A stretch of 32,000 bases of DNA from Candidatus Scalindua sp. (GTDB lineage Bacteria > Planctomycetota > Brocadiia > Brocadiales > Scalinduaceae), in assembly GCA_031316235.1 (NCBI GenBank), contig JALDRA010000001.1:2040001-2072000 (forward strand), given 5' to 3'. The notes beneath the pieces were generated by a model that had not been told where the DNA came from, did not search any database, and saw only the letters and a program-made list of their open reading frames with translations. Below are positions 29,030 through 29,845 of this stretch, piece by piece; the stretch's first letter is position 1, and each line of letters starts with the position of its first letter. The position numbers were made by a program, and so were the translations under genes.

Positions 29030-29113
29030 TTTTTATCCTTATATGTGTAGTAGTAAAATAGCTCTCGTATAAGCACAAAAACCCGTAAAATAGAAATGCA
29101 CCGATAGTAAAAA

Positions 29114-29638
29114 CTACTTAATTAATGGAACATTTTGATCAGGAGAAGCGATTGTTAGATTTTCAAGTTTCAATTCATCTTCAACTTCCTCATTAAATAG
29201 TGCATGGCATTCATCACAAGATTCTCTTAGCTTTTCAAATTCTAATTTCGAATTAACGTCATCATGGTCTCTGCTGCACAACATCAGATTTTTTGTGGCG
29301 CGCAGAAATTTGTTTTGTAAAGCTATGAACTCGTTTGGAACTTCATTGTTTTCTGCTTCATAAAGTTCCACACACTTATCGCCTATACCTTCTTTGATTT
29401 CTTGTGTCCATATATCTATTTCCACCCAATCATTGTGTTTTACTCCAATGCTCAGCCGTTTCATTGCCATGGAGGCTTTCTTCATGGCCCTTACCAAGCC
29501 GAAATCAGTAGCTCTCTCTTTTTGTACGTGTTCAATACTCTCAACATTTGCCTCCTCCACTTCCTCAGGCTTTTTACAGGAAGCAATGGACAGGCAAACC
29601 ACCAAAATAATTATTACTGCTATCATTGAACGGCTCAT
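29114..29638 (-). CDS. Mono-heme c lipoprotein, cytochrome c-prime-like; paralog 2
   Basis: 174-aa ORF with ATG and AAGGAGA Shine-Dalgarno. It has the same lipobox LSIASC and CDECH (29204-29218). It is colinear with 18099-18623, with no gaps and about three quarters identical residues by my manual count. Confidence 0.6.
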   Translation of the reverse strand: MSRSMIAVIIILVVCLSIASCKKPEEVEEANVESIEHVQKERATDFGLVRAMKKASMAMKRLSIGVKHNDWVEIDIWTQEIKEGIGDKCVELYEAENNEVPNEFIALQNKFLRATKNLMLCSRDHDDVNSKLEFEKLRESCDECHALFNEEVEDELKLENLTIASPDQNVPLIK

Positions 29639-29845
29639 TCTCTCTCCTTATCTAAATGTTTCAAACAAATATTCCATCATTACAATTTAAGCTGAACCAT
29701 ATAGAGCGATTGTGGCTGGTCAAGTCCACTTCTAACTTGCGAAAATCGTCTTTATGTAAACTCTTGGTCACTGCAGTAGAACAATCCGATGTAATCAGTT
29801 GAATAAGAAATAGAAAAACTATTAAAATGGTGTAAAAATTGTTAT

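Follow-up and report, generated by a model that had tools for sequence, protein, structure and literature searches.

Candidatus Scalindua is a marine anammox planctomycete, and anammox organisms cause a large share of oceanic nitrogen loss. We have analyzed 32,000 nucleotides of a Candidatus Scalindua chromosome (GCA_031316235.1, contig JALDRA010000001.1, positions 2,040,001 to 2,072,000; hereafter the window, of genome MRK01). A gene for a 174-residue protein, a putative lipid-anchored cytochrome c, occurs there twice, as cytA and cytB, and each copy adjoins one of two genes of the ammonium transporter (Amt) family, Amt483 and Amt534, whose products have 483 and 534 residues. The present study suggests that this adjacency is probably historical and not functional, the cytochromes being small lipid-anchored carriers whose paralogous cassettes, at a rearrangement-prone locus, bracket a relocated ammonium module.

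Class II cytochromes c (PF01322; cytochrome c′, c556) are the nearest described family. As in these proteins, cytA and cytB have a single CXXCH near the C terminus of the last helix and a predicted antiparallel four-helix bundle of ~105 residues, with profile similarity over helices C and D. They differ in scoring below the Pfam cut-off and in possessing a lipoprotein signal peptide, a disordered linker of ~25 residues and a variable acidic tail. Furthermore, where true cytochromes c′ have a five-coordinate, gas-binding haem, the methionines M52 and M59 of the window proteins suggest that His and Met ligate a six-coordinate haem. Also comparable are soluble cytochrome b562 (E. coli CybC) and its engineered c-type variants (cb562), as the profile of the extended family (35 full-length members) covers b562 residues 4 to 106 at E ~3e-4. 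Native b562 differs in that it binds its haem non-covalently and is not a lipoprotein; the matches in the PDB are variants with an introduced CXXCH, and the wild-type b562 sequence reached only 3.3 bits against the extended-family profile. The best single-sequence PDB match to cytA (E 0.11) was the ‘Small soluble cyt c’, so named by its depositor, of entries 6r6m, 6r6n and 6r6o, which matched the extended profile at E 8e-9 over helices C and D and the CXXCH. It differs in being soluble, in its length of 110 to 111 residues and in having no lipobox. It may be an anammox NaxLS-type small cytochrome, His/Cys-ligated and NO-binding.

For the ammonium module, the comparable systems are the Ks-Amt5 ammonium sensor and a cluster of Kuenenia stuttgartiensis, given in passages of PMC7438415 as amtb_1(HK)...nrp4-nrp3-amt_4 (KSMBR1_3722...3716). 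According to these passages the cluster follows the same logic, combining an Amt-type sensor with a histidine kinase, two P-II genes and a transporter Amt; in the Scalindua module, however, the Amt sensor and the kinase are encoded separately, by neighbouring genes. No cytochrome is mentioned for the cluster in those passages of PMC7438415 that a term search matched. Finally, segmental duplication with ectopic gene conversion likewise leaves direct repeats of a gene with its flanks and a sharp switch of affinity within one copy. The difference is that the switched tract of our locus is ~10% diverged from the resident candidate donor.

Two cytochrome cassettes and the mosaic of copy B

BLASTN joined cassettes A and B (Table 1) in one colinear direct repeat of 656 columns with 83.2% identity and one gap (E = 0). 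This is the only long repeat of the window besides dispersed elements and intragenic tandem repeats. Each cassette contains the 174-aa gene with 72 bp of 5′ flank and 58 bp of 3′ flank. The 5′ flanks are identical at 63 of 72 positions (87.5%) and the 3′ flanks at 47 of 58 (81%), compared with 51% and 46% directly beyond the cassette limits. The two proteins share 131 of 170 residues (77%), and the lipobox LSIASC and the haem motif CDECH stand at the same positions in both. The 3′ end of cytB is 84 bp from Amt534 on the same strand, and no terminator was predicted in this gap; cytA lies 615 bp downstream of Amt483, past an 11-pair GC-rich terminator and a dispersed repeat. In the NCBI annotation, cytB matches the hypothetical protein MRK01_08800 (100% over 98% of the query), whose annotated start is four codons later, and cytA corresponds to the hypothetical protein MRK01_08760.

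The cytochrome 5′ region, roughly ...TCAG-TTAAATTGTA...GAATATTTGTTTGAAAAATTTAGATAAGGAGAG-ATG, is kept in orthologues that have no amt neighbour, and the first ~50 nt of the 3′ flank are also conserved across orthologues. Thus, the flanks reflect a self-contained transcription unit and not only recent copying. When window positions 18696-18780 and 29712-29795 were compared, copy A was found to retain the canonical upstream region of the family to about −150, in common with L012, L005, L013-L015 and L007 (L numbers denote fetched loci). Copy B retains it to −72 only, where a promoter-like TTGACC-16-TATGGT begins.

A similarity of ~100 bp farther upstream was rejected as a part of the cassette, as it belongs to a dispersed repeat resembling repetitive extragenic palindromes and miniature inverted-repeat transposable elements (REP/MITE-like). 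An attC-like or terminator element in the 3′ flank was also rejected (4 pairs, −1.2 kcal/mol, no covariation, no conserved structure). No terminal inverted repeats were found at the cassette, and no integrase or transposase domains among the open reading frames (ORFs) of the window. An Rfam scan of the window gave no known RNA element, and tRNA genes were absent from it. The cassette therefore has neither the recombinase nor the structured or inverted-repeat ends of an integron- or transposon-like mobile gene cassette.

Comparison of cytA with cytB by the Nei-Gojobori method gave a ratio of nonsynonymous to synonymous substitution rates (dN/dS) of 0.25 with a dS of 0.51. The ratio was 0.17 in the bundle (codons 49-150) versus 0.87 in the disordered tail (codons 151-174). 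Both copies are kept as functional genes under purifying selection, and the duplication, or the split of its two sources, is not recent.

These results agree closely with the description of the repeat in the original prediction, which had placed a colinear duplication at 18040-18710 and 29055-29725 and had counted, by hand, about 130 identical residues in 174. The flank similarity claimed there is indeed above background, and the copied unit is, as proposed, the gene with its 5′ leader and promoter and a short 3′ flank. Its layout also holds, with copy B upstream of Amt534 and copy A past a terminator and a repeat, as do the shared positions of lipobox and CDECH, the clustering of substitutions in the C-terminal tail and the view of two functional, diverging paralogues. 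The c′/b562-type four-helix bundle with a C-terminal haem site that it had expected is backed by the profile, AlphaFold2 and Foldseek evidence given further below.

Over codons 49-150, cytA is 93 to 94% identical in nucleotide sequence to L012 and L005 (A-type), and cytB is 91% identical to L057 and 84% to L011 (B-type); cytA and cytB are 83% identical to each other. RBC_AMX3 and ERZ25039603 are genomes of the A-lineage, SCAELEC01 and SCALA701 of the B-lineage. Over codons 1-48 and the 5′ flank, cytB groups with cytA, L012 and L005 (87 to 90%), far from L057 and L011 (71 to 73%). At 80 informative sites, cytB is A-type at 35 of 36 from −72 to +132 and B-type at 34 of 44 from +181 to +520. The mosaic test gave a maximum χ2 of 44.6 with a breakpoint between nt +132 and +181 (permutation p ≤ 5e-4), and neighbor-joining trees of codons 1-48 and of codons 49-150 were incongruent. 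cytB is a recombinant, whose promoter, signal peptide and linker (5′ flank and nt 1-132) are of the A-type and whose haem domain (nt 181-522) is of the B-type.

In its A-type tract, copy B differs from copy A by ~10% and from L012 and L005 by as much. Therefore, either the recombination is old or its donor belonged to another lineage, and on this ground we rejected a recent conversion of copy B by copy A. A simple Campbell-type single crossover was rejected as a sufficient explanation. It predicts reciprocal mosaics, in which the 5′ part of the left copy is resident and its 3′ part incoming, whereas the observed left copy is A-type at its 5′ side and B-type at its 3′ side and the right copy is A-type throughout.

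Genomic settings of the cytochrome and of the ammonium module

Taking one genome per GTDB species, we found 37 loci of the family, with up to four detected loci per genome. Apart from three, these loci carry the labels Scalindua, Scalinduaceae or Brocadiaceae; judged by these database labels, the family is almost confined to Candidatus Scalindua. Both Amt proteins were searched by tBLASTN against all fetched loci, finally all 60. Among the 30 other cytochrome loci that are flanked by 3 kb or more on each side, an amt gene lies within 10 kb at one, that of genome OFTM180. Across genomes, the cytochrome has no conserved amt neighbourhood. One metagenome contig (L059) carries two family members ~2 kb apart with a P-II-like ORF between them (8281-8769, 10418-10750 and 10845-11105).

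The close orthologues have a recurring neighbourhood, which consists of DUF2024, an aldo/keto reductase (AKR), a small gene of ~103 codons, DUF488 and a small NIR_SIR protein. This setting occurs in S. japonica, S225, RBC_AMX3, SCAELEC01/SCALA701, OFTM180 and several metagenome contigs, the loci with AKR, DUF2024, DUF488 or NIR_SIR neighbours being L001, L005, L011-L015, L056 and L057. Distant paralogues adjoin a copper ATPase, or a blue-copper protein together with a Rieske/cytochrome b cluster. In L011, L056 and L057, DUF488 directly follows the cytochrome and is 89% identical to the DUF488 of the window. The NIR_SIR protein of the window is half-size (270 aa) and most like the C-terminal part of NirB; the gene for a NosL-like protein, 15427-15969 (−), comes after it.

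In the window, the ancestral-type neighbourhood is split. DUF2024 and the AKR, with a 151-bp remnant of the small gene, lie by cytB, and DUF488 and NIR_SIR lie by cytA. The small gene is the upstream neighbour of the cytochrome in other Scalindua, and its remnant overlaps a 64-aa ORF without a Pfam match. As this remnant stands beside copy B, copy B is at the ancestral locus. Since the amt block thus splits the cytochrome neighbourhood and leaves one copy on each side, the repeat is probably no sign of one cytochrome per Amt.

The block between the two copies has six genes, from Amt534 to Amt483 (Table 1). Beyond Scalindua, Amt534 is most closely related to Amt-histidine-kinase fusions resembling the Ks-Amt5 sensor. 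The gene for the 1060-aa kinase starts a few bp after Amt534, and the two look like a split version of a fused ammonium sensor kinase, judging from these relatives. A near-consensus match to a sigma-54 promoter, TGGCACTTTTATTGCG, lies at 21732-21747 (−), 45 bp upstream of the P-II-like gene, i.e., ahead of the P-II/Amt483 operon. No sigma-54-like site was found upstream of cytA or cytB. Between the kinase and NtrC genes, a 122-aa antisense ORF, 23830-24198 (+), has no Pfam match and is 85% identical in amino acids in OFTM180; a sigma-54-like TGGCATGTTTATTGCG at 23750-23765 (+) lies ~65 bp upstream of it, and every instance of the module has, at this place, a called gene of similar size on the opposite strand.

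The six genes are found in the same order in four further Scalindua lineages, with both flanks visible in three of them and only the downstream flank in JANLIF01. The upstream and downstream neighbours are spermidine synthase and response regulator-cytochrome-RND (resistance-nodulation-division pump) in OFTM180, GGDEF and YjeF_N in WBZR01, and MsrAB and endonuclease V in CAADGZ01; in JANLIF01, the contig ends upstream and thioredoxin-nuo follows downstream. Each Scalindua lineage examined thus has its amt module at a different location. No cytochrome adjoins it on either side in WBZR01 and CAADGZ01 or downstream in JANLIF01, where the upstream side is unseen; among these four lineages, it is present in OFTM180 only, and there only downstream.

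OFTM180 has a cassette-sized duplication of its own, of 583 bp and 95% identity (L015:9960-10540 versus L016:9958-10540). The AKR locus holds one of these copies; the second lies at the downstream edge of the amt module beside the RND pump, ~680 bp downstream of Amt483 with the response-regulator gene between. The spacers of OFTM180 and of the window have in common only the Amt483 terminator region, which is 78% conserved in OFTM180, and the cassette leader. A remnant of the OFTM180 response-regulator gene was sought between Amt483 and cytA of the window, and none was found.

These observations are probably best explained by a history of the locus. Cassettes A and B would be paralogous self-contained units, each with its own promoter and leader, ORF and short 3′ flank, and the ancestral home of the cytochrome would be DUF2024-AKR-(small gene)-cytochrome-DUF488/NIR_SIR. 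In the order of events that we infer, the 11-kb six-gene ammonium module came to lie inside this neighbourhood with one cytochrome copy per side, so that the repeat may be the footprint of duplication and recombination at the cytochrome locus. Later homologous recombination or gene conversion could then have given copy B its A-type promoter and signal-peptide region together with its B-type haem domain. Several findings weigh against this history. cytB and Amt534 share a strand, and the 84 bp between them contain no predicted terminator, which makes co-transcription possible; OFTM180 too has a copy downstream of Amt483, by which the association is seen twice; and the cytB-Amt534 junction is known from one assembly only. 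The single Campbell-type crossover fails to yield the mosaic, and the divergence of the A-type tract means that any conversion was old or from another lineage. On the side of the protein, the window sequences individually fall short of the Pfam gathering score (19.4 and 18.5 versus 26.5 bits) and the Foldseek E-values are weak (0.02 to 0.08).

The original prediction had proposed that each Amt has a periplasmic haem protein dedicated to it. Such a partner might, for example, provide redox or NO input to ammonium transport or sensing, and it would have been duplicated to serve both. This is now distinctly unlikely, and it fails the amt-linkage survey that the prediction itself had proposed. The cytochrome copies do adjoin both amt genes of the window, cytB closely and without a terminator; a family member follows Amt483 in OFTM180, and the module kinase has a Tll0287-like haem-c sensor domain, which already brings haem chemistry into the module. 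However, the cytochrome is absent from both sides of the module in two of the four other lineages and from the one visible side in JANLIF01, and 29 of the 30 well-flanked cytochrome loci have no amt gene. Besides, copy A is a separate transcription unit, set off from Amt483 by a strong terminator and repeats; the conserved promoter region that it possesses recurs in non-amt contexts, and neither copy has a sigma-54 site upstream. The OFTM180 copy is only downstream and beyond a response-regulator gene, in a spacer unlike that of the window outside the terminator and the cassette leader. It also appears improbable that the MRK01/OFTM180 branch recruited the cytochrome to the ammonium module, where the Amt sensor or the haem-c domain of the kinase would receive a redox or NO signal from it. 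The recruited copy would then be copy B, with its exchanged promoter region 84 bp ahead of Amt534, and recruitment would tie redox state to ammonium sensing and the anammox energy state to ammonium uptake.

We regard it as rather unlikely that the cassette serves as a preferred recombination homology for integrating or shuffling gene blocks between Scalindua genomes, the direct repeats having arisen from a circular intermediate with the cytochrome and the amt module. The similar duplication limits in two genomes would fit this (−72 to +58 past the stop in MRK01, at 83%; −41 to about +40 in OFTM180, at 95%), but conservation of the promoter and of the 3′ end explains constant limits equally well. 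In both genomes, the AKR locus holds one copy and the edge of the amt module the second, cassette neighbours vary on both sides in almost every genome while the limits stay constant, and copy B is a recombinant; yet one crossover does not give the observed mosaic, the window has no integrase or transposase, and neither terminal inverted repeats nor a conserved 3′ hairpin was found. The REP-like repeats beside both copies offer an alternative substrate for recombination. An assembly artefact, by which two co-existing Scalindua strains were fused at the cytochrome gene in this closed metagenome-derived chromosome, is very improbable. The source is a metagenome-assembled genome, cytA and cytB resemble the two different lineages A and B, and no second assembly containing the cytB-Amt534 junction was retrieved. 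However, copies of only 83% identity differ too much for an assembler to confuse them, the sequence at the cytB-to-Amt534 and REP-to-cytA junctions is unique and not repeat, and both ORFs are intact and under purifying selection.

A partnership of Amt and cytochrome was suggested by adjacency in one genome, and comparative genomics ascribes this adjacency to rearrangement. The fold and the family are already known, and duplication and conversion are ordinary processes. New are the finding that the location of the amt module differs in each Scalindua lineage examined and the mosaic of copy B, a worked example of cassette-scale duplication and recombination between diverged lineages. Also new is a delimited subfamily of putative lipoprotein class II cytochromes, almost confined to Scalindua and with a conserved candidate Met ligand, which adds to the poorly mapped small electron carriers of marine anammox bacteria.

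The cytochrome protein

The N-terminal signal peptide, MSRSMIAVIIILVVCLSIASC, ends in a lipobox; its last four residues, IASC, match the pattern [LVI][ASTVI][GAS]C as read from the sequence. S20 and C21 are conserved in at least 90% of the family. A Glu/Lys-rich linker of ~25 residues and then a helical domain follow the signal peptide. CDECH occupies residues 141-145 of 174, with the variable acidic tail behind it, and C141, C144 and H145 are invariant in 15 Scalindua and 35 extended-family sequences. AlphaFold2, run with the family alignment, predicted an up-down bundle of four to five helices (47-67, 71-86/89-97, 102-123 and 127-155), with a predicted local distance difference test score mostly above 90 at residues 51-140 and with a disordered signal peptide, linker and tail.

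Against the PDB, Foldseek retrieved four-helix bundles. Cytochromes c′ matched with a template modeling (TM) score of 0.61 to 0.68 and PsbQ equally well, and E-values were weak throughout this search. PsbQ was rejected as the family; it has no haem motif, and the fold matches are those of a generic four-helix bundle. The PsbQ match in NCBIfam (E 3e-4) had 21 bits against a cut-off of 107 and covered residues 3-74, i.e., the signal peptide, the linker and the first helix.

Each window protein alone remains below the PF01322 cut-off, as stated above. The profile of the Scalindua family matched class II cytochromes of the PDB at E 2.5e-4, and that of the extended family matched cytochrome c′ at E 4.5e-10 and c-type b562 variants, nearly over the full length, at E 3e-4. 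PF01322 was matched by 34 of the 35 full-length extended-family members at E ≤ 0.01, with a best E of 1.1e-26. By this transitive profile evidence, we file cytA and cytB as divergent, putatively lipid-anchored members of the class II cytochrome c superfamily. The family is small, as a full HMMER scan of 1.84 billion representatives returned only 57 clusters at E ≤ 1e-3, and a scan of JGI metagenomes for close relatives gave two distant loci only.

Two methionines of helix 1 are seven residues apart. At least 90% of extended-family members carry M52, and M59, which does not vary among the Scalindua sequences, stands opposite the axial Met7 of b562 in a hidden Markov model alignment of low confidence. 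M52 and M59 hint that the protein is an electron carrier with a six-coordinate His/Met haem and not a gas-binding cytochrome c′. From the lipidation, haem ligation and physiological role that we infer, cytA and cytB would most likely be small electron carriers that are held by a lipid anchor at the outer face of a membrane and are possibly His/Met-ligated.

Features of the window and dispersed repeats

Table 1. Positions of the cytochrome cassettes, the ammonium module and neighbouring features in the window
Feature	Position	Strand	Evidence or remark
Cassette B (gene and both flanks)	29056-29711	−	BLASTN, 83.2% over 656 bp to 18041-18695
cytB, 174-aa putative lipoprotein class II-type cytochrome c, chimeric	29114-29638	−	ORF; Pfam/PDB profile matches; mosaic test
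Cassette A, second repeat copy	18041-18695	−	BLASTN
cytA, 174-aa paralogue, A-type throughout	18099-18623	−	ORF
Amt534, Amt family, C-terminal coiled coil, first module gene	27425-29029	−	PF00909, E 7e-107
Sensor histidine kinase, 1060 aa: Tll0287-like haem-c, HAMP, PAS, GAF, HisKA, HATPase	24235-27417	−	
NtrC-type sigma-54 activator/response regulator	22187-23584	−	
Degenerate P-II-like protein, 149 aa	21238-21687	−	Below Pfam cut-off, 21.5 versus 25 bits
P-II (GlnK/GlnB-type) protein	20765-21199	−	
Amt483, Amt-family transporter, last module gene	19239-20690	−	
Intrinsic-terminator-like hairpin between Amt483 and cytA	19141-19168	−	11 pairs, 8 GC
Aldo/keto reductase and DUF2024	30587-31743	−	Conserved upstream neighbours of the cytochrome locus
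Remnant of the ~103-aa small gene	29713-29863	−	BLASTN 83% to L011/L056, 78-79% to L012/L005, 73-74% to L015/L001
DUF488 gene	17153-17506	−	Downstream cytochrome neighbour in B-lineage L011, L056, L057
Small NIR_SIR (sirohaem/4Fe-4S-type) protein	16138-16950	−	Cytochrome neighbour in S. japonica, S225, RBC_AMX3
REP/MITE-like repeat copies upstream of cassette A	18885-19087	.	Dispersed; outside the duplicated unit
REP/MITE-like repeat copy upstream of cassette B	29835-29961	.	Dispersed

The REP/MITE-like repeats form an intergenic family of 55 to 140 bp. The window has at least 10 of them, and many occur in other genomes of Scalindua. Besides the copies that flank the two cassettes, which could take part in rearrangements, there are others at about 6368-6521, 6860-6989, 7771-7850, 9606-9775, 13841-13969, 14460-14630, 17550-17689 and 30138-30174. 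Within the repeat upstream of cassette A, a near-perfect palindrome with a 28-bp stem lies at 19024-19087 (z = −7.6 for the DNA fold).

The intragenic tandem repeats belong to the gene of an 812-aa Cache/PAS sensor, 3910-6348 (−). They lie at 3930-4642 and 5086-6137, comprise 332 bp at 75% and 521 bp at 83% identity, and indicate recent domain duplications in this gene.

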